From NCBI GenBank assembly GCA_945865405.1, contig CAMBDS010000003.1:12374-76373 (forward strand): a DNA stretch of 64,000 nucleotides, written 5' to 3'. The notes below the pieces were generated by a model. The model was not told the DNA's origin. It did no database searches and saw only the letters and a list, made by a program, of their open reading frames with translations. Position 1 is the first letter of the stretch, and each line of letters starts with the position of its first letter. Positions 11,101-34,441 of this stretch are shown in pieces. Source of the stretch: Caldithrix abyssi DSM 13497 (GTDB lineage Bacteria > Electryoneota > AABM5-125-24 > Hatepunaeales > Hatepunaeaceae). The position numbers were made by a program, and so were the translations under genes.

Positions 11101-12615
11101 ATTGAGGATGTTTCTCGGTGACAACATCAACAGCCGCGCTTCGATCTGGGACTCGTAAGAAAGCGGTACGTGGACCGCCATCTGGTCACCGTCGAAGTCA
11201 GCGTTAAACGCCGCACAGACGAGCGGATGAAGCCGAATTGCCTTACCCTCGATCAACTGCGGCTGGAAAGCTTGAATACCGAGTCTATGCAGTGTCGGCG
11301 CACGGTTAAGCAATACCGGATGATCCTGAATGATCTCTTCCAAGAGTTCCCAGACGACATCGAGTTTACGCTCGACCATCCGCTTGGCAGACTTCACTGT
11401 TTTGGTGTAGTCGCGCTCGATCAGCTTGCGAATAATGAACGGTTTGAATAACTCGACAGCCATGTGCTTTGGCAAACCGCATTCATGCAGTTTCAGTTCT
11501 GGACCAACCACAATTACCGAACGACCGGAATAGTCAACGCGCTTTCCGAGCAAGTTCTGGCGGAAACGTCCCTGCTTACCACGAAGGTTATCGGAGAGTG
11601 ACTTCAAAGGGCGGTTGCCGTCGGAGCGCATCGCAACTGACTTCCTGCCGTTGTCGAACAACGAATCGACAGCTTCCTGCAACATCCTCTTTTCGTTGCG
11701 AAGGATGACATCAGGGGCTTTAATCTCGATCATTTTTCGCAGACGATTGTTGCGAATGATGACTCGTCGGTAAAGGTCATTCAAATCCGAAGTCGCAAAT
11801 CTACCGCCATCAAGCGGCACGAGAGGTCTCAAATCTGGCGGTACAATCGGGACAACTTTCAAGACCATCCATTCGGGGCGGTTCCCACCTTCGTGGCTGC
11901 TGGCCATGAACGCCTCGATAACTCTAAGGCGCTTGATATAATCTTGCTTACGCTGAATAGAGGTTTCGATGGCAATCAGACGACGAAAATCGCGCGACAC
12001 GGTGTGGACTTCAACCCTGCGAAGCATTTCGAGGATCGCCTCACCACCCATGAGGGCGATGAACTTGTTCGGGTCGGAATTGGGCAATAACCGGTTTTCA
12101 TAGCCAATCGTATCGAGAACATCGTTGTAATCGTTCTCGGAAAGTACTTCGCAAAATCTCTTGCCTGATGGTCCCGGTTGGATAACAGCAAAAGATTCGT
12201 AATAAATGATCTTTTCAAGGTCGCGGCCAGAGATCCCCAGCAGGTTCCCGATCTTCGATGGCAACGATTTGAAGAACCAGATATGGACAACGGGTACGGC
12301 TAGCTCGATATGTCCCATCCTCTTCCGGCGGACGTCTTTGCGAGTGATCTCGACGCTGCACCGGTCGCAGATGATTCCCTTGTATCGGATTCCGCGATAT
12401 TTACCGCAGAAGCACTCCCAATCCTTCGTCGGCCCGAAGATTCGCTCGCTGAAGAGTCCGTCTTTTTCGGGCTTATAGGAACGGTAGTTAATCGTCTCCG
12501 GCTTTGTCACTTCGCCATGGGAGCGATCGAGAATCATCTCGGGAGACGAAAGCCCAATCGTGATTTTAGTGAAGTGTTCGGTTTCTACATCGAACTGTTT
12601 TTGGCTGTAAGCCAC
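8194..12615 (-). CDS. rpoC: RNA polymerase beta' subunit
   Basis: NADFDGD catalytic motif, N-terminal Cys zinc finger, [17 protein letters not shown]; GTG start; acidic C-terminal tail. Confidence 0.99.
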
Positions 12616-26354: not shown

Positions 26355-27785
26355 TCACTTCCCCACCCACCCGCTCCCGCTACTCGCCCCTGTTGACCAC
26401 GTCACATCGACGCCAAGCTTTCCATCCTTGATCTGGTAGCCATTCGCAGCAAGCTCTGCCCTGATCGCATCGGCACGCGAGAAGTCCCTGCCTTCTTTAG
26501 CACGGGTTCGCTCGCGGACAAGTTCGATTATTTCAGTTGGCAGGTCATCCCAGAACAGGAACCCCAAAGCCTTGTCGAACTGCCGCCAGACCGCCAGTAC
26601 AGCCTCCCCCTCCGCCAGATTAAAGGCAACCGCCGTCGCCAACCGGTTCCCCGCGCTGACAAGCTCAAACAAAGCCGCCAGTGCCGCCGAGATGTTGAGG
26701 TCGTTCTCCAGACCCTCTTTGAACGAAACGCTCCATTTTCCGATCTGTTCTGTCAGTTCGGGACGCACCGAGCCGTCCCCCAAACTCTTCTCCGCCGCAA
26801 GTCTCAGCGTATCAAGCCTCTCCAACGATGCCTGTGCCGCACCAAAAGACTCGTTGGAGAAATTGACCCCCATCTTGTAATGCGTCCCGATCAGCACATA
26901 CCGGATCGCCCGCGCCGAATAGCCTTTATCGATCAACTCCCTGAGTGTGAAGAAATTCCCCAGCGACTTCGACATCTTCTCGCCCTCGACCTGCAAGTGC
27001 GCGCTGTGCAGCCAATACCTGACGAACTCCTTGCCGGTCGCCGCGCAAGACTGCGCGATCTCGTTCTCGTGATGCGGAAAGATGTTATCGACGCCGCCAG
27101 TATGGATGTCGAACGTCTCACCCAAATATTTCATTGACATTGCCGAGCACTCGATATGCCAGCCGGGCCTTCCCCTGCCCCATGGTGAGTCCCACCCTAC
27201 CTCTCCGTCGTCCTCCGTCCAGCCTTTCCAGAGCGCAAAATCACGGAACGACTCCTTCTCCTCATACTCATCGGCGTCGATCCGAACACCTCGCTCCAAC
27301 TTTTCGAGATTCATCCCTGAAAGCTTCCCGTACTCCGCAAATTTCTCAATACTGAAATAGATATTATTCTCGGCTGGGTAAGCGATCCCCTTCTCTATCA
27401 AAGTCTTAATAATATCAATCATTTCAGAGATATGCTTCGTCGCGTGGGGATAGACCTCCACCCGCTCAATTTTCAGCGTATCGAGGTCGTTGAAAAAACG
27501 TTCGACAATCGGAGCCGTCACCTGCTCAAGCGATATCCCTCCCGTCTTAGCCGCTCGAATCGTCTTGTCGTCGATATCGGTAATGTTCATCACCTGCGTC
27601 ACTTCGTAGCCGAGATATTTCAGCGTCCGCCGCAGCAAATCCTCAAACATATAGGTACGGAAGTTCCCGATATGAGCATCGTTATAGACCGTCGGCCCGC
27701 AGGTGTAAAGCTTCACCTTGCCCGGTTCAAGCGGTTCGAACGCCACCTTCTTGCGGCGTCGTGTGTCATAAAATTGGAGAGGCAT
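26355..27785 (-). CDS. cysS: Cysteine--tRNA ligase
   Basis: YTCGPTVY, HIGN, GWHIECSAM, KMSKS motifs. Confidence 0.98.
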   Translation of the reverse strand: MPLQFYDTRRRKKVAFEPLEPGKVKLYTCGPTVYNDAHIGNFRTYMFEDLLRRTLKYLGYEVTQVMNITDIDDKTIRAAKTGGISLEQVTAPIVERFFNDLDTLKIERVEVYPHATKHISEMIDIIKTLIEKGIAYPAENNIYFSIEKFAEYGKLSGMNLEKLERGVRIDADEYEEKESFRDFALWKGWTEDDGEVGWDSPWGRGRPGWHIECSAMSMKYLGETFDIHTGGVDNIFPHHENEIAQSCAATGKEFVRYWLHSAHLQVEGEKMSKSLGNFFTLRELIDKGYSARAIRYVLIGTHYKMGVNFSNESFGAAQASLERLDTLRLAAEKSLGDGSVRPELTEQIGKWSVSFKEGLENDLNISAALAALFELVSAGNRLATAVAFNLAEGEAVLAVWRQFDKALGFLFWDDLPTEIIELVRERTRAKEGRDFSRADAIRAELAANGYQIKDGKLGVDVTWSTGASSGSGWVGK

Positions 27786-27941: not shown

Positions 27942-28040
27942 CTGAAGCTGGTGAAAAACCTGAGTTGAGTATCCATCTACAAAAAAAAGTAAGAGCGGAC
28001 ACCCTGTCCGCTCAAGACCGTTTCAGGCTTTGGCAGACCC

Positions 28041-28676
28041 CTACAATGCCGAAACCGATCCCGTCGCCTGAGCGGCAAACTCTTTATTGATCTGTGTCGC
28101 CCGCCGGTAGTAATTTCCTACCGTGATTATCGCAAACGGTATCAAAAAGTAGGCAATCCAAATCGACTCTTCGATGCGAACCGTCATCCCGATCACCATC
28201 AAGCCCAGCGTCACCATATAGCTCTTCCCATAAGGATCCGACGAGAGTACCACTCCAGTACGTCGCAATACTCTCCCGTTCAGTACAAGTATTCCTACAT
28301 CACGCAATAAAATTACCGTCGCGATCCAGATCGGCAAATCCCTGTGCAAGACAAGCAAAAAAAGCATCGACACCGTCCAGAGCTTGTCCGCCAGTGGGTC
28401 CATGATCAGCCCCAATGCTGATTTCATGTTGAGTCGCCGCGCCGCTTCCCCATCGGCAAAGTCAGATATGTAAGAGAGCGCCAGTAACCCCACGGCCCAG
28501 TAGAAAGCCAACTGTGATGGTTTGGTGTAAAGGATCGCTATCGGGATAATTAACAGTATCCTGATTAACGATATAATGTTGGGTAAAAGGGTAATTTCTG
28601 AGAGAACTTTCCGTCGGTCGAGGTAAAACTGAGTCTTCGTTCTCACCAACGGCGACCTATCCTGGCTGATCTCCAT
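28041..28676 (-). CDS. CDP-alcohol phosphatidyltransferase (PgsA-like)
   Basis: PNIISLIR and DFADGEAARRLNMKSALGLIMDPLADK signature. Confidence 0.93.
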   Translation of the reverse strand: MEISQDRSPLVRTKTQFYLDRRKVLSEITLLPNIISLIRILLIIPIAILYTKPSQLAFYWAVGLLALSYISDFADGEAARRLNMKSALGLIMDPLADKLWTVSMLFLLVLHRDLPIWIATVILLRDVGILVLNGRVLRRTGVVLSSDPYGKSYMVTLGLMVIGMTVRIEESIWIAYFLIPFAIITVGNYYRRATQINKEFAAQATGSVSAL

Positions 28677-29852
28677 TTAAACGAATGCCCGGATTATGTC
28701 AAGTAGCAATGAAGGCTGGTTCATCAACCCAATCAGGAAAGCCCTTTTCAATGTCCTATCTTCCGGTGGCAACGCCAGCAACTCATCGGCCGTCCGGTTC
28801 AGCATGTCGTCGGTCAGATTGGCGACACCATCCTTAAGTCGGTAGGCGCGATTATTCGGCTTCCCGACATCCTCCTGAAGCCGATCAACATAAATCGAAA
28901 GTGCTTTGGCAGAAGTTTCGCCGCTTTTCGCCGCTTCAGCTGCAGTTAGCCCCGCTTGATACCCGGCAAACATACCGGTCGCGATGCCTCCGCCAGTCAA
29001 CGGATTGCAATGTCTGGCAGCGTCACCCGCAAGCATTATCCCGTTTGCATAAGGCACCTTAATCGGCTTGGAAACAGGTACACCACCAGCCATCTCCCCA
29101 ACTATTGCCGCGTTGGGATAATGGTCGTCGATGAAACTCTTTAACTTCCGATATGCTGTCCCTGCCTCGTTATCCCTGACACAAACTCCAATCCCCACCG
29201 AGGCTACCGTCGGACTCTTCGGGAAAACCCAGACATACCCGCCAAGCGCCACGTCCTGCCCGAAGTAAAAGTGGCAGTATCGGTCATCGTAGTCAAGCCC
29301 CGCCAGATAGAACTGGTAGGCGCTTTCAAGGTCTGCCGCCCGGATATTTGTGTATATCCCCGCCCAACGCCCCACCCGCGAATCGACACCGTCGGCAGCA
29401 ATGACAACCTTGCAGTCAGCCTGTTGACGCTTCCCAAGTCGTTGATAAATTACCCCCTTCACCATCGACTCTTCGATAACTAACCCTGTCACGTCGCTCC
29501 GCGAGATCACCGTCACTCCCGCCTCAGCCGCAGTTTCAGCGAGATACCGGTCAAAGATGCACCGCTCAAGGATAATCCCGGTCGTATCCGGCGACACAAT
29601 CGGCACTCCGCTGCCATTAGGCGCATAGAGCACCGCTCCGGCGACCTCAGCCGCTACCCACCGCGGATCGATGGTAACAAATCTTTTTAGATTCCGAGCC
29701 GCAATCGCTTCACCGCAACGTACCGGCGTCCCGATTACAGCGTCCCTCTCCAGCAACAACGTCCGGGCCCCATTCTGCGCCGCCGTCCGCGCTGCAATTG
29801 ACCCCGCAGGCCCTGCCCCGACAACTATGACGTCATAGTTATCTGCCAGCAC
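28677..29852 (-). CDS. Geranylgeranyl reductase family, archaeal DGGR-like
   Basis: GAGPAG, PVRCGE, ADG.DS, GYVWVFPK, GDAA...NPLTGGGI motifs. Confidence 0.9.
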   Translation of the reverse strand: MLADNYDVIVVGAGPAGSIAARTAAQNGARTLLLERDAVIGTPVRCGEAIAARNLKRFVTIDPRWVAAEVAGAVLYAPNGSGVPIVSPDTTGIILERCIFDRYLAETAAEAGVTVISRSDVTGLVIEESMVKGVIYQRLGKRQQADCKVVIAADGVDSRVGRWAGIYTNIRAADLESAYQFYLAGLDYDDRYCHFYFGQDVALGGYVWVFPKSPTVASVGIGVCVRDNEAGTAYRKLKSFIDDHYPNAAIVGEMAGGVPVSKPIKVPYANGIMLAGDAARHCNPLTGGGIATGMFAGYQAGLTAAEAAKSGETSAKALSIYVDRLQEDVGKPNNRAYRLKDGVANLTDDMLNRTADELLALPPEDRTLKRAFLIGLMNQPSLLLDIIRAFV

Positions 29853-30114
29853 TGGCCGTACCGTTCTGTTTCAACAAATCAGCGAAACTTGCAACCCCTG
29901 TCTCATTCCACGAGAGCGCCTCAACAGGACAGGCCGGGATACAAAATCCGCACTTGATGCAATCGGGCCCAACAATGCCCAGAGTATATTCGTCCAGCGT
30001 GATGCAGTCTGCCGGACAGATACCGACGCAAGCCCCACACTGGTCGCAAAGTCGCGGATTGACCAGAATAGGAGTTTCCGCCGTGATATCGAGTCTGGCT
30101 TTTATTTTGCTCAT
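29839..30114 (-). CDS. 2x[4Fe-4S] ferredoxin
   Basis: Two CxxCxxCxxxCP motifs (CDQCGACVGICP, CIKCGFCIPACP). Confidence 0.93.
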   Translation of the reverse strand: MSKIKARLDITAETPILVNPRLCDQCGACVGICPADCITLDEYTLGIVGPDCIKCGFCIPACPVEALSWNETGVASFADLLKQNGTASAGR

Positions 30115-30230
30115 TTATTGGTATTAAATTGATTGGATGGCGTCACAAAGCGATGGGACGCTCGTTCAACTTCCCGCTGCCGACACGCTTAGGTTGGCAA
30201 CACTTTCCCACTTTCCCACTCCCCCCTCTC

Positions 30231-31418
30231 CTACCCAAAATCAGTCAACAACGACCTGAACGCATTCAAGAAGACCCCCGGATGGTTCTTCAAAATCTTA
30301 TATAGTATTGTCCCAAACGTCCGGTCTTCCGGCTTTATCAGATTAATCTCTTTCGCCGCATTGTTGAGCGACTGATCCGTCAACCCTCCCAACGACCGCC
30401 TGATATTGTGAGCAATCTTATGCGGAACGATCACCTTCTTTTCGATCTTTTCAACGTACTTCAACAGCCGCTTCGCCGAAAGGTCTCCTTCGCCAATCGC
30501 CTGCACTGCCGTCTGACCAGCATGAAATCCTCCGGTCATACCCGAAAGTATCCCCGCTCCGGTGATAGGATTGCAATGTCTTGCCGCATCCCCCACCAGC
30601 ATCAATCCGTCCTTGGTCGGCTTCTTCAACGGTGGCGCACCGGGCACTCCCCCCGCCATCTCCCCCACTATCGAGCACTTTGGGAATCTTCGTTTAAGAA
30701 AAGTCTCAAGCCGCTCGTAGGCTGACCCCATTTCGGTCTCAATAGCCGGAAACCCAATCCCTACCAGCACCGTAGTTCGACTCTTGGGAAAAAGCCAGAT
30801 AAACCCGCTCGGCCCAATGTACGACCCGACATAAATCTCGGCGCTCGTCGGATCAAAATCGACTCCTGCCACAATAAACTGATACGTTGGTGCCAGATCT
30901 TTCAGAGTCATCTGTGTGTTGATCCCGGCAAACCGTCCGATCCGTGAGTCAACCCCGTCCGCCCCGATCACCACCGACGCTTCTACCTCAGTCCTCACTC
31001 CAAACCGCGAATAGCTAACCCCGGTGATTCGGTCGCCATGCTTCAGCACTCCATTCACATCGGCGCGAGTGATTATCTCACTTCCCGCATCGGCTGCAAG
31101 TTCCGACAGAAATCTATCAAACAGGCTCCGTTCCAAAATCACTTCAGGATTGTCCTTGCCGACAATCTCGACCTGCTCACCCGACGGTACGACAATGTAG
31201 CCATGATCGACAATTGTCGCCACCCAACGTTCCTGAATCGGGATGAACTCTTTGAGCACGTTCAGTGATGTCGCTTCCCCACACCGTACCGGCGTCCCGA
31301 TAACAGGATCGCGCTCAAGCAAAAGAGTCTTCGCCCCTGCCTTGGCCGCTTCACGCGCGGCCATCGATCCGGCTGGTCCCGCCCCAACAACAACTACATC
31401 GTAGCGGTCATTTTTCAT
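30231..31418 (-). CDS. Geranylgeranyl reductase family, DGGR-like paralogue
   Basis: GAGPAG, PVRCGE, GFIWLFPK, GDAARHCNPITGAG motifs. Confidence 0.9.
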   Translation of the reverse strand: MKNDRYDVVVVGAGPAGSMAAREAAKAGAKTLLLERDPVIGTPVRCGEATSLNVLKEFIPIQERWVATIVDHGYIVVPSGEQVEIVGKDNPEVILERSLFDRFLSELAADAGSEIITRADVNGVLKHGDRITGVSYSRFGVRTEVEASVVIGADGVDSRIGRFAGINTQMTLKDLAPTYQFIVAGVDFDPTSAEIYVGSYIGPSGFIWLFPKSRTTVLVGIGFPAIETEMGSAYERLETFLKRRFPKCSIVGEMAGGVPGAPPLKKPTKDGLMLVGDAARHCNPITGAGILSGMTGGFHAGQTAVQAIGEGDLSAKRLLKYVEKIEKKVIVPHKIAHNIRRSLGGLTDQSLNNAAKEINLIKPEDRTFGTILYKILKNHPGVFLNAFRSLLTDFG

Positions 31419-32421
31419 GAACGGAGTTCATTCGCGTCACAGCAGCACCATTGGCGTATTCGGCACGAAAATTGGGGTAATCAAGGCCAAAGCGGTTCCA
31501 ATGGTACCATCTCGCTATCGGTAGGTAAACCACCATCGCCACCAGGAAGTAGGGATAACCTATAGCGATACCCATTGCCAATAAAAAGATCGCCGCCTTA
31601 TTTCCGGCGACCGACAGCCGGTAATCCCGCCTCTTCAAAGCTAAAGCAATCAGTATGGTACATGCCACTGCCGGCACAACTACCACCCAATCGCGAACGA
31701 ATATCCCAATCAGCCCCGCAACAAATACCATCACCCCGGCGAAAAGTGCCGTATTACGCTCGCCAAATGCAACGGCAAAGCTTCGTTTCCCCGTCTCCCG
31801 GTCACCCTCAAGGTCGGGTATCGACGTAAGCAGACACCCCGCCGAAAACGCCAGGATATACGGAAGCTCTCGCAACAGGCCAATATCCCTGCCTGCGATC
31901 AATTCCCCCAGTTGCAACAATAGCCAACCGCCAATAGCCCCGGAAAGCACGCCTCCGACCGGAGTTCGCTCAAGTGCCAGTGGTGTATAGTTGTAGAGTA
32001 TCCCCGCAACCGCAAATGTTGCGATCATCCAGTACCCAAGATGACCAAATCCGGAATAAATCAATGCGGCTGGAGCGATAATCCCAAGCAATATCCCGAC
32101 CACATGTTGAGTCTTTCGGCTGACGAGATCGTTGGCAATCAGCATCGATTTCCCGTTCCGTCGGTCTCCTTCACGGTCGCGCATCTGATTCAACAGATAG
32201 ACGAGCCCAAACAGCGCCGACATCGAAATAGTGACAATCAACCAGCGTGTCGCACCAATCTCATCATGATCTTTCACCAGTCCATGCCCGGCAAGTAACA
32301 TCGTCCAAAGTGGAAAGATCAATGTCGGCCTGAGCAAGAAAAACCAGTCGAGTAGTCTGGCGATGCTTTCGTGCTTCTGTTTTTCAGCAGCCAAGCTTGA
32401 TCGTTCCTTCGTCTTCATCAT
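31408..32421 (-). CDS. UbiA-family prenyltransferase
   Basis: NQMRDREGDRRN and PDLEGD Asp-rich motifs; about 8 TM; start uncertain (ATG 32421 or TTG 32394). Confidence 0.85.
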   Translation of the reverse strand: MMKTKERSSLAAEKQKHESIARLLDWFFLLRPTLIFPLWTMLLAGHGLVKDHDEIGATRWLIVTISMSALFGLVYLLNQMRDREGDRRNGKSMLIANDLVSRKTQHVVGILLGIIAPAALIYSGFGHLGYWMIATFAVAGILYNYTPLALERTPVGGVLSGAIGGWLLLQLGELIAGRDIGLLRELPYILAFSAGCLLTSIPDLEGDRETGKRSFAVAFGERNTALFAGVMVFVAGLIGIFVRDWVVVVPAVACTILIALALKRRDYRLSVAGNKAAIFLLAMGIAIGYPYFLVAMVVYLPIARWYHWNRFGLDYPNFRAEYANGAAVTRMNSVHEK

Positions 32422-33823
32422 TATCAATCGGGTATTTACCCGTAAAGCACGCCGTGCAGTAACCCTGACCATTCTCATGCGGAACGCCGGATACAAGCTC
32501 TTCCACACTCAAATATTCGAGCGAATCGGCGGCGATGAAATCGCAGATCTCTTCCAGAGTCATATCGTTGGCGGCAAGTTGTTCCCGTGACGGAAAATCC
32601 ATGCCGTAAAAACAAGGGTGCCTCACCGGCGGCGAGCTGATCCTGACATGCACTGCCAGCGCTCCCGCTTCGCGGATATGTTGCACCAGCTTCTTCAACG
32701 TCGTCCCGCGAACTATCGAATCATCGACCAGAATTACCCGCTTCCCCTTCAGGACGCCAATCACCGGGTTGAACTTTACCTTGACGCCGAAGTCGCGCAG
32801 CTTCTGCTCTGGTTCGATGAACGTTCTGCCAACATAGTGATTCCGGATCAACGCGATCTCAAACGGCAACCCTGATTCGTGAGCATACCCCAGCGCCGCC
32901 GTGTTGGACGAGTCTGGTACCGACATCACAAAATCGACATCCGCTGGTGCCGGGTGGTACTTGGCGAGGATATGGCCGAGCTTACGGCGCGTCTTATCGA
33001 CGTTATCGCCAAACACACGACTGTCAGGTCGTGAAAAATAGACATACTCGAAGATGCAATGAGTCGGCTTGTTCGGCGGTGTGAACCGAAAATTCCGCAT
33101 ACCATCGTGATCGAAAATTATCACTTCCCCGGGTTCCACGTCGCGAATATATGTCGCCCCGATCAGGTCAAGCGCGCACGACTCGGACGCCACTACCCAT
33201 CCGCCATCCTTTTGCCCAAGACACAACGGTCTGAATCCATTCGGATCGCGAGCTGCTATCAGGCTGTTTCTGGTCAACAGCGTCAGCGAGTAAGCCCCCT
33301 TCACCATCCGCAACGCTTCGAGGAATCTGTCGAGAAAGGTCGGCGTGTGTGACCTCGCCGCAAGCTGAAGGATCAGCTCGCTGTCGCTGGTCGTCCGAAA
33401 AAGCGACCCCTCTTCCTCAAGAAACTTTCTAAGAGGCAGGTAGTTGACCAAATTTCCGTTATGAGCCATCGCAACCGATCCCGACCTATCCTCGACCAAC
33501 AACGGCTGAACGTTCTGCTCCGATGAAGGCCCTGTCGTCGAGTAACGATTATGACCAATCGCCGCGCCACCTTCGAGGCTGTTCAGAACCGCTTTGTCGC
33601 GGAACGCATCGGCGACAAGCCCCTTGGCAGCATGCCTAAAGAGCAACTGCCCGTTCGTCGAGACAATTCCCGCAGCCTCCTGACCACGATGCTGGAGCGC
33701 ATATAAACCCAGATAGGCTATATTTGCCGCCGCAGGTAACCCCCAAACGCCAACGACCGCACAGTTAGGCCTTACTGCGTCAATATTTCGACTCTCATCC
33801 ATAACTATTTCGTTACGATCCAA
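32384..33823 (-). CDS. purF: Amidophosphoribosyltransferase
   Basis: Propeptide followed by CAVVG, LQHRGQE, VDDSIVRGTT, Fe-S Cys (CIFE, CFYG, CTAC). Confidence 0.97.
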   Translation of the reverse strand: MDRNEIVMDESRNIDAVRPNCAVVGVWGLPAAANIAYLGLYALQHRGQEAAGIVSTNGQLLFRHAAKGLVADAFRDKAVLNSLEGGAAIGHNRYSTTGPSSEQNVQPLLVEDRSGSVAMAHNGNLVNYLPLRKFLEEEGSLFRTTSDSELILQLAARSHTPTFLDRFLEALRMVKGAYSLTLLTRNSLIAARDPNGFRPLCLGQKDGGWVVASESCALDLIGATYIRDVEPGEVIIFDHDGMRNFRFTPPNKPTHCIFEYVYFSRPDSRVFGDNVDKTRRKLGHILAKYHPAPADVDFVMSVPDSSNTAALGYAHESGLPFEIALIRNHYVGRTFIEPEQKLRDFGVKVKFNPVIGVLKGKRVILVDDSIVRGTTLKKLVQHIREAGALAVHVRISSPPVRHPCFYGMDFPSREQLAANDMTLEEICDFIAADSLEYLSVEELVSGVPHENGQGYCTACFTGKYPIDNDEDEGTIKLGC

Positions 33824-33985: not shown

Positions 33986-34441
33986 CTACCTCACCGCCCA
34001 ACCCAAACTGATCTTCACTCCGTCCCAAGCTTCGACATTCACGGAGAGCTTATCACTCACGTCAAAATCGAAAAGGTGAGCATCCACGTAGGCGTCCAGC
34101 GACGAATAGATTAGCCACCCCGCAAGGATCCAGACCATCCGATTCCGCTGATCCTTGTAAATCGTCGCTGATCGATCATCGTTAAACCGTCGTGCGTCGC
34201 GAAAAAGCTGATGTTCGCGCACAATCCCAAAAATCAACCCCTGCTCAACAGCCCCGACAATCACAGCTTTAAGAGGCCGCCTATTATACGCCTGCCCCCA
34301 GCCCGGAAATGCCAGAGATCGCAACGCAGCCCCCCCCGGCGAAGGTTTCCACTCAGCTTGGGCGACTACCGTCGAATCTGCCAGTGCCGCACCCGACCAA
34401 ACCATCAGTGCAAAAAAGGCTATAGTGCCGAAGCGATACAA
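33986..34441 (-). CDS. DUF5683-like exported/membrane protein
   Basis: A.LRS...PGWGQ.YN and DAYVDAHLFDFDVS motifs. Confidence 0.7.
   Translation of the reverse strand: MYRFGTIAFFALMVWSGAALADSTVVAQAEWKPSPGGAALRSLAFPGWGQAYNRRPLKAVIVGAVEQGLIFGIVREHQLFRDARRFNDDRSATIYKDQRNRMVWILAGWLIYSSLDAYVDAHLFDFDVSDKLSVNVEAWDGVKISLGWAVR

Follow-up and report, generated by a model that had tools for sequence, protein, structure and literature searches.

The 64,000-nt stretch analysed here (the window; positions 12,374 to 76,373 of the forward strand of contig CAMBDS010000003.1 in the Caldithrix abyssi DSM 13497 assembly GCA_945865405.1) carries a cassette of five co-oriented minus-strand genes between purF and cysS. 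Judged from their sequences, the two geranylgeranyl-reductase-family flavoproteins (GGR_A and GGR_B), the ferredoxin and the CDP-alcohol phosphatidyltransferase (CDPOH) of this cassette most likely saturate archaeal-type isoprenoid ether lipids and provide them with a head group, and the UbiA-family membrane prenyltransferase (UbiAx) most likely acts in that pathway too, by prenylating a glycerol-phosphate lipid. The cassette was assigned to ether lipids because it co-occurs with genes for geranylgeranylglyceryl phosphate synthase (GGGPS) and di-geranylgeranylglyceryl phosphate (DGGGP) synthase (DGGGPS), and because its reductase type is linked to these genes in other bacteria. An archaeal-type ether-lipid pathway had been proposed in an initial annotation of the sequence; the pathway gained support from the GGGPS gene, the DGGGPS-type gene, their co-occurrence with the cassette and the linkage elsewhere, and the window's UbiA protein was found not to be the DGGGP synthase.

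Co-occurrence of the cassette with GGGPS and DGGGPS-type genes

The window belongs to contig C3 of genome G000, a 2.76-Mb Calditrichota assembly (approximately 90% complete) with its closest relatives in the Calditrichota; window coordinates are positions in the 64,000-nt stretch. The genome search for GGGPS suggested in the initial annotation was positive: a gene at C21:44359-45099 scored 156.5 bits on PF01884 and 218.8 bits on TIGR01769 (cut-off 161.55). A DGGGPS-type UbiA gene was found at C5:33542-34381, with 205-210 bits on DGGGPS-type models, under the equivalog cut-offs, and with the motif NDFHD...NCPDRPIPSG. In a maximum-likelihood (ML) tree its clade also contained the M. jannaschii enzyme (MjDGGGPS), along with UbiA genes adjoining GGGPS. 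A CdsA homologue (C12), uppS, dxs of the methylerythritol phosphate pathway and two polyprenyl synthases were present, and a search of the genome recovered only two bona fide GGRs, both inside the window.

When 79 Calditrichota genomes (families f1-f7) were surveyed, UbiAx was detected in 41, GGGPS in 39 and the DGGGPS type in 40. Every genome with GGGPS or the DGGGPS type was UbiAx-positive, and neither gene was found in any UbiAx-negative genome of the set. All three loci were present in 38 genomes and none in another 38; the 3 discordant genomes were 89-93% complete. The co-occurrence gave a Fisher p of ~1e-20 with phylogeny ignored. Within family f3 the loci were present or absent genus by genus, with 4 genera lacking all three and 7 having them. 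Since the three loci lie on different contigs (C21, C5 and C3 in G000), the pattern reflects co-inheritance and not linkage. Phylum-wide scoring of GGRs took at most 25 candidates per genome, and absences are not readable from those data.

Linkage was seen in a survey centred on 80 metagenome GGGPS loci. A DGGGPS-type UbiA gene directly adjoined GGGPS in 4 loci, and a GGR-family gene stood next to it in 5; among the latter reductases, at least three (L105, L109 and L121) could clearly be assigned to the GGR_B type. At these three loci an N-terminal 2x[4Fe-4S] ferredoxin and the GGR_B-type reductase were fused in one open reading frame (ORF) (L105:6489-7946, L109:52-1548 and L121:585-1997), each fusion standing directly upstream of GGGPS; L105 and L121 had the order DGGGPS-(Fd::)GGR-GGGPS, where Fd is ferredoxin. 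Such clusters tie the reductase type of the cassette to the products of GGGPS and DGGGPS, and they indicate that the C5-type gene, not UbiAx, is the usual GGGPS partner. The natural gene fusions, read as Rosetta-stone evidence, confirm the pairing of ferredoxin and reductase in bacteria. At L105 a UbiAx-family gene lay 2.7 kb upstream of the ether-lipid cluster on the same strand. Within the Calditrichota, GGGPS adjoined alaS in 14 of 20 genomes (L065-L084), including G000 itself, and no recurrent lipid gene was found beside GGGPS in these 20 genomes.

Reductases, ferredoxin and CDP-alcohol transferase

Families were assigned by Pfam and NCBIfam profile searches of the window proteins, and all those named in the initial annotation were confirmed. 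GGR_A (30231-31418, minus strand) and GGR_B (28677-29852, minus strand) scored 202.3 and 214.8 bits, respectively, on TIGR02032 (cut-off 158.8), and both had the PF22578 GGR catalytic domain, placing them, together with their motifs, in the geranylgeranyl reductase family. The translations of both contained PVRCGE and the (Y/F)xWxFP motif as first annotated, with GGYVWVFP in GGR_B and SGFIWLFP, with F for Y, in GGR_A. GGR_B, an archaeal-type (DGGR-like) isoprenoid reductase, also contained GxGxxG, LxGD and RxxFD and aligned full-length to the T. acidophilum DGGR structure 3OZ2 (216 bits). In a tree of all collected reductases 3OZ2 nested within the clade of cassette reductases. On the archaeal DGGR equivalogs (NF041160, NF041080 and NF041385) the best scores were 215.5 and 230.9 bits, the latter for GGR_B on the Thermoplasmatales model, below the cut-off of 780.

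GGR_A and GGR_B were 48% identical in an ungapped alignment, and GGR_A was sister to GGR_B on a longer branch. A copy in the GGR_A position, between UbiAx and the ferredoxin gene, was found only in the window and at the same-genus locus L007. The two reductases are thus identified by alignment and tree as a recent local duplication, GGR_A being the genus-specific, fast-evolving copy. The L007 orthologue, from a sister species, reads GGYVWIFP with the Y retained, which places the Y-to-F change at the species level. The reading of GGR_A as an old paralogue defined by this change was rejected, given its sister relationship to the same-genus GGR_B and the Y in the sister-species copy. Different specificities of the two paralogues, as the initial annotation proposed, are possible but unsupported. 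The genus of G007 had an independent second reductase copy at another position. A further GGR-like flavoprotein (~440 aa, 100-130 bits) was widespread in f2-f4, irrespective of UbiAx. In G034 such a gene (L043:7946-9295) was located next to UbiAx in divergent orientation, and GGR-family genes numbered up to five in this genome, two of them in tandem (L057).

The ferredoxin gene (29839-30114, minus strand; 91 aa) lies between the reductases, as had been annotated; its product, a 2x[4Fe-4S] ferredoxin, matched Fer4 families and contained two CxxCxxCxxxCP motifs. In nearly all loci with a reductase after UbiAx, a ferredoxin gene preceded GGR_B, and the protein is presumed to be the electron donor to the reductase.

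CDPOH (28041-28676, minus strand) scored 101.4 bits on PF01066 (cut-off 22), as a member of that family, and its DxxDGxxAR(x8)G(x3)D(x3)D motif reads DFADGEAARRLNMKSALGLIMDPLAD. It remained below the equivalog cut-offs of PgsA (71.5 bits on TIGR00560, cut-off 109.1) and ClsA (74.4 bits on NF053678), and the nearest solved structure was S. aureus PgsA 7DRJ (28 bits). Three CDP-alcohol transferases are encoded in the genome: a PgsA-like protein on C4 (97.7 bits on TIGR00560; 34% identity to CDPOH over 94 aa), a PssA-like protein on C22, and CDPOH. With a better PgsA match on C4 and a PssA-like protein on C22, the window gene is an extra copy. By its profile scores, CDPOH is classed as a divergent PgsA/Cls-like CDP-alcohol phosphatidyltransferase.

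UbiAx and its gene neighbourhoods

UbiAx (31408-32421, minus strand; 337 aa) scored 73.9 bits on PF01040 (cut-off 34.2), which puts it in the UbiA superfamily. Its reading frame is open to 32508, and the alignments of relatives begin at the ATG at 32421. In translation the first motif is NQMRDREGDRRNGK followed by SMLIAND; the loop after the first Asp motif (NGKSMLIAND) was without the RP..P.G of typical DGGGP synthases, as the initial annotation had observed. In DGGGP synthases this stretch takes the form NDxxDxxxDxxNKPxRPxPSG. The second motif is DLEGDRETGK, and both Asp-rich Mg2+/diphosphate motifs were intact. Across the family these motifs took the forms NQxxDxxxDxxNxK, followed by hydrophobic residues, and DxxxGDxxxGK, accompanied by an N-terminal D..F.LRPTL.FP.WT and a C-terminal (W/F)Y...RF...YP (WYxxxRFxxxYP in the window copy). 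N78, D82, D86, D203 and D207 were invariant across 132 UbiAx-family sequences.

The top NCBIfam score of UbiAx was 42.5 bits, on MenA models, with homogentisate phytyltransferase second-best. UbiAx stayed far below the cut-offs for MenA (23.8 bits on TIGR00751, cut-off 102.15) and for DGGGPS (23.5 bits on PRK12882, cut-off 296). When the UbiAx profile was compared with solved structures, MjDGGGPS 6M31 was the best match (38 bits, E 7e-9) and chlorophyll synthase the second. An AlphaFold2 model (predicted local distance difference test, pLDDT, 94; predicted template-modelling score, pTM, 0.91) had a multi-helix UbiA fold. Its top Foldseek matches were AfUbiA (the A. fulgidus homologue) and MjDGGGPS, with probability 1.00, and the DPPR synthase structure 8J8J was also among the fold matches; the structure search confirms the UbiA fold and does not tell substrates apart.

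In the ML tree UbiAx (SH-aLRT support 96), DGGGPS (98) and Calditrichota MenA (100) formed three separate clades, the DGGGPS clade taking in an M. jannaschii fragment and the GGGPS-adjacent UbiA genes. Of the trees that the initial annotation had called for, that of the reductases placed archaeal DGGR inside the cassette clade, and that of the UbiA proteins placed UbiAx outside the DGGGPS clade and outside the MenA clade as well. The UbiA superfamily of G000 comprised four genes: heme O synthase (C8), a DPPR-synthase-like gene (C18, 233 bits), the C5 DGGGPS type and UbiAx. The UbiAx family hidden Markov model (HMM) scored the DGGGPS type highest among the paralogues (68.8 bits) and the C18 gene at 33 bits. 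UbiAx as the DGGGP synthase of this genome, which the initial annotation had considered, was rejected on the canonical orthologue on C5 and the separate tree clade. UbiAx is best described from these trees and profiles as a separate uncharacterised UbiA clade, neither DGGGPS nor MenA. The full HMM search recovered 249 cluster representatives at E<1e-30, compared with approximately 20 relatives in a word-based search alone. Their database names were generic or automatic (e.g., 'UbiA family prenyltransferase'), some coming from KSB1 and LCP-89 bins. The clade was spread over several FCB-type (Fibrobacteres-Chlorobi-Bacteroidetes) lineages, nearly always downstream of purF.

The order purF-UbiAx-Fd-GGR-CDPOH-cysS was found in most f1, f2 and f5 genomes, and one genome had purF-UbiAx-cysS. 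Other lineages had purF-UbiAx-Fd-GGR-CDPOH-ftsY, purF-UbiAx-Fd-GGR-helicase or purF-UbiAx-GGR-CDPOH-cysS; the cysS flank was syntenic within the Calditrichota and was replaced by ftsY or a helicase gene elsewhere. The UbiAx-Fd-GGR(-CDPOH) order was kept from 78% down to approximately 25% UbiAx identity with varying downstream genes, in Calditrichota, LCP-89, KSB1-type and marine lineages, and UbiAx remained next to CDPOH in genomes where Fd-GGR sits elsewhere. Adjacency of purF and UbiAx was seen in nearly all related loci, including those of other phyla, with L043, L105 and L167 as exceptions. At L167:5377-7912 the order was uppS-cdsA-UbiAx, with a 4-nt overlap of cdsA and UbiAx and with a polyprenyl synthase (ispA) and dxs approximately 4 kb downstream. 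This UbiAx member is divergent but clear (222 bits on the family HMM), and L167 was the only context found in which UbiAx is coupled to a CDP-diglyceride synthase instead of purF. A chain reductase, a CDP-alcohol transferase and a CDP-diglyceride synthase are the company expected of an enzyme that makes a phosphatidate-like isoprenoid lipid. At the non-Calditrichota locus L037, the slot between GGR and ftsY (L037:9378-9899), which holds a CDP-alcohol transferase in relatives, contained only three tiny ORFs of 52, 43 and 63 aa. A ferredoxin gene was not called at this locus either, and the cassette may have decayed there.

The five genes mostly overlap or abut, in agreement with the initial annotation. 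The 3' end of purF (amidophosphoribosyltransferase; 32384-33823, minus strand) overlaps the start of UbiAx by 38 nt, so that the two are predicted to be co-transcribed, and probably are. UbiAx overlaps GGR_A by 11 nt and the ferredoxin gene overlaps GGR_B by 14 nt, while GGR_B directly abuts CDPOH. A terminator-like hairpin (27993-28013, minus strand; 9-bp stem, 6 G-C pairs, T-rich tail) comes just past the CDPOH stop, and cysS (26355-27785, minus strand) lies beyond it, outside the module. No sigma-70-like promoters were found on the minus strand within the cassette, and regional counts were not above those of shuffled sequences. GGR_A and the ferredoxin gene are 116 nt apart (30115-30230), the sole cassette junction without overlap or abutment; the gap may have been left behind by the duplication from which GGR_A arose. 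A comparable gap, of 135 nt, occurs in L007. On the other side of UbiAx, a block of ridA, a DUF5683-type membrane protein gene, variable genes, purF and UbiAx (window part 33986-34441, and related loci) was kept at approximately 30% UbiAx identity, an unusual depth of gene-order conservation.

Proposed pathway, rival explanations and known systems

We consider it fairly probable that the run from purF through UbiAx, GGR_A, the ferredoxin gene, GGR_B and CDPOH to the terminator is a transcription unit, as predicted, and an ether-lipid module with UbiAx acting in the pathway. In this form it would represent the Calditrichota counterpart of a module shared by several FCB-type lineages. By homology and the published activity of Cloacimonetes enzymes, GGGPS (C21) and the C5 DGGGPS type would build unsaturated DGGGP from geranylgeranyl diphosphate (GGPP). 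The bacterial CdsA would convert DGGGP to its CDP form, and CDPOH would attach a glycerol-phosphate-type head group. The ferredoxin would pass electrons to the flavin adenine dinucleotide (FAD)-dependent GGR_B, and perhaps to GGR_A, its recent and fast-evolving duplicate in the tree, and the isoprenoid chains would become saturated; this step draws on homology, the gene fusions and the precedent in M. acetivorans. UbiAx, in the least certain step, would attach geranylgeranyl or phytyl to a lipid acceptor of the glycerol-phosphate type, in addition to the DGGGPS reaction or as an alternative to it. A more specific version, which is possible but doubtful, has UbiAx as a hitherto unrecognised bacterial ether-lipid synthase for a step absent from the archaeal pathway, with glycerol-3-phosphate (G3P) or lyso-phosphatidate as the acceptor, for example. 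If so, hybrid ether/ester or G3P-based isoprenoid phospholipids would be finished by CdsA and CDPOH, the use of archaeal-type genes in FCB-type bacteria without G1PDH and CarS would be explained, and UbiAx would be a natural enzyme bridging the 'lipid divide'.

Several observations weigh against the ether-lipid assignment of the cassette or the place of UbiAx in it. Few independent losses (families f6 and f7 and the four f3 genera) lie behind the co-occurrence. Three of the six f6 genomes (G046, G047 and G051) carried a GGR-family gene without UbiAx, GGGPS or the DGGGPS type; this gene (loci L045 and L049) scored 219-224 bits on TIGR02032 with approximately 25% identity to GGR_B, and it is classed on sequence as a different GGR-family enzyme. 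In f3 and f4 the order was purF-UbiAx-CDPOH-cysS, with Fd-GGR located elsewhere. The RPxPSG cap-loop Arg, conserved in other UbiA families, is missing from UbiAx, which also falls outside the DGGGPS clade, so its chemistry could differ. The genes purF and cysS were as syntenic as those of the cassette; conserved order alone is therefore no proof of functional coupling, and with purF an equally constant neighbour of UbiAx, part of the gene order is simply old synteny. G1PDH (EgsA/AraM), also proposed as a search target in the initial annotation, was not found in the ~90% complete genome, where the best PF13685 match was 17.9 bits (cut-off 28). No PF01864 (CarS) match was obtained in a partial screen, which compared 10 of 23 multi-transmembrane ORFs (147-199 aa) with Pfam.

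The initial annotation left room for a saturated-quinone pathway, with UbiAx as a MenA/UbiA-type quinone prenyltransferase and the reductases as MenJ-like side-chain reductases. MenA models did head the NCBIfam matches of UbiAx, though at no more than 42.5 bits, no canonical MenA was present among the four UbiA genes of G000, and complex I subunits and heme O synthase were present. However, MenA-like genes were found in 73 of the 79 Calditrichota genomes, including 38 of the 41 with UbiAx, and in the sister species (101 bits). No MenB or MqnA/D was over cut-off in the ~90% complete genome (best MqnA/D match 19.9 bits against 26), leaving no 1,4-dihydroxy-2-naphthoate to prenylate. The clades of UbiAx and MenA were separate with high support, and the reductases scored 54.0 and 58.8 bits on MenJ NF045655 (cut-off 700), four-fold under their DGGR scores of 215-231 bits. 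A quinone pathway would also leave the CDP-alcohol transferase, the cdsA coupling and the GGGPS co-occurrence unexplained. The MenA/MenJ reading was rejected on the separate clades, the coexisting MenA-like genes and the low MenJ scores, and we regard it as very improbable; whereas the initial annotation had looked for grouping of UbiA with MenA and absence of GGGPS as signs against an ether-lipid pathway, UbiAx stood apart from MenA and GGGPS was present. As to the quinone genes of G000 itself, the assembly includes two nuoJ-like genes along with heme O synthase and a CtaA-like neighbour; men genes are probably absent from it because they fall in the 10% that it does not cover, real loss being the alternative.

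A rather unlikely, though weightier, possibility is that UbiAx makes another lipid, prenylated or phosphoribosylated but other than a glycerol ether, GGGPS and DGGGPS being linked to it only by a common supply of GGPP. The reductase and ferredoxin could supply phytyl diphosphate for UbiAx to join to a small acceptor, on the model of chlorophyll synthase or homogentisate phytyltransferase working with ChlP; UbiAx could also use phosphoribosyl diphosphate (PRPP) on a lipid phosphate, like DPPR synthase. The position of UbiAx outside every characterised clade and its missing RPxPSG loop agree with either version, the second-best ranks of chlorophyll synthase among solved structures and of homogentisate phytyltransferase in NCBIfam with the first, and the 8J8J fold match with the second. 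The PRPP version would also fit purF-UbiAx as the most conserved junction. Against this, the CDPOH and cdsA neighbours suggest a CDP-activated glycerophospholipid, a separate DPPRS-like gene exists on C18 to which the UbiAx HMM gives only 33 bits, no candidate aromatic-acceptor pathway was found nearby, and L105 places UbiAx within 3 kb of DGGGPS-Fd::GGR-GGGPS. It is less probable still, and quite unlikely, that the neighbourhood is conserved without a common function, as part of a slowly rearranging housekeeping block (folB-folK-dNK-ridA-DUF5683-purF ... cysS). The equally syntenic housekeeping flanks would be accounted for, as would the displaced Fd-GGR of f3 and f4 and the missing CDPOH of several other lineages; but the genes are overlapping or abutting, with a single terminator-like hairpin at their end, three unlinked loci were gained or lost together, lipid genes turn up near UbiAx again in unrelated contexts (cdsA at L167, the ether-lipid cluster at L105), and the ferredoxin-GGR pairing is confirmed through gene fusions.

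The ether-lipid assignment can be set against systems already described. Orthologues of GGGPS and DGGGPS are reported by Coleman et al. 2019 (PMC6431249) from each of the 12 FCB phyla surveyed, Caldithrix among them, with G1PDH in only two. Villanueva et al. 2021 (PMC7852524) report that Cloacimonetes GGGPS and DGGGPS were active in E. coli, note Euryarchaeota-like GGRs and cite evidence that bacterial CdsA can replace CarS. For M. acetivorans, a GGR next to a ferredoxin is described by Isobe et al. 2014, cited in PMC7852524 and discussed in PMC10821996; the MjDGGGPS structures 6M31/6M34/7BPU (Ren et al. 2020) are summarised in PMC9385802. Within the searched portions of the literature, including PMC7852524 and PMC6431249, no description was found of the UbiAx clade, of a UbiAx-Fd-GGR(-CDPOH) operon, of bacterial ferredoxin::GGR fusions or of an all-or-none phyletic pattern.

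As in the Ca. Cloacimonetes set, GGGPS is combined in a bacterium with a DGGGPS-type UbiA and with GGRs resembling those of Euryarchaeota; G1PDH was not found, nor was CarS in the partial screen, and bacterial enzymes of the CdsA and PgsA types are presumed to finish the lipids. Unlike in that set, where GGGPS and DGGGPS are co-localised, the two are unlinked here, and the reductase stands in a separate predicted operon, accompanied by a ferredoxin of its own, by a dedicated CDP-alcohol transferase and by a prenyltransferase from a third clade. The reductases share with M. acetivorans GGR and T. acidophilum DGGR the FAD reductase motifs GxGxxG, PxRCGE with its catalytic Cys, YxWxFP, LxGD and RxxFD, and with the former an adjacent 2x[4Fe-4S] ferredoxin gene; they differ in their bacterial host, in scores below the DGGR equivalogs and in their duplication within the genus, with F for Y in one copy. 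UbiAx has in common with MjDGGGPS the UbiA fold, the N and DxxxD motif, the second Asp-rich motif and a Y...K motif. By contrast, it has NQ for ND, hydrophobic residues (KLFLIA-type) for the RPxPSG segment, extra N-terminal and C-terminal motifs and a clade of its own, with a true DGGGPS orthologue in the same genome. CDPOH resembles PgsA (7DRJ) and ClsA (NF053678) in its DxxDGxxAR...G...D...D motif, length (~200 aa) and multiple transmembrane segments, and is set apart by scores of 71-74 bits, under both equivalog cut-offs, and by a position tied to UbiAx.

The bacterial 'archaeal-like' lipid gene set is thus already known, and this locus is a variant of it. What the locus adds is a reductase with its own ferredoxin, in the Calditrichota also a dedicated head-group transferase, and a third, widespread, uncharacterised membrane prenyltransferase clade joined to the module. 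The whole set behaves as a single all-or-none trait within one phylum, so that relatives with and without it can be paired for lipidomics, the single-contig genomes G032 and G041 being among the carriers and G027 among the non-carriers. Should UbiAx prove to form a new kind of ether bond, mixed or hybrid membranes, and the origin of the isoprenoid ether lipids of sediments, would become directly accessible to experiment through it.

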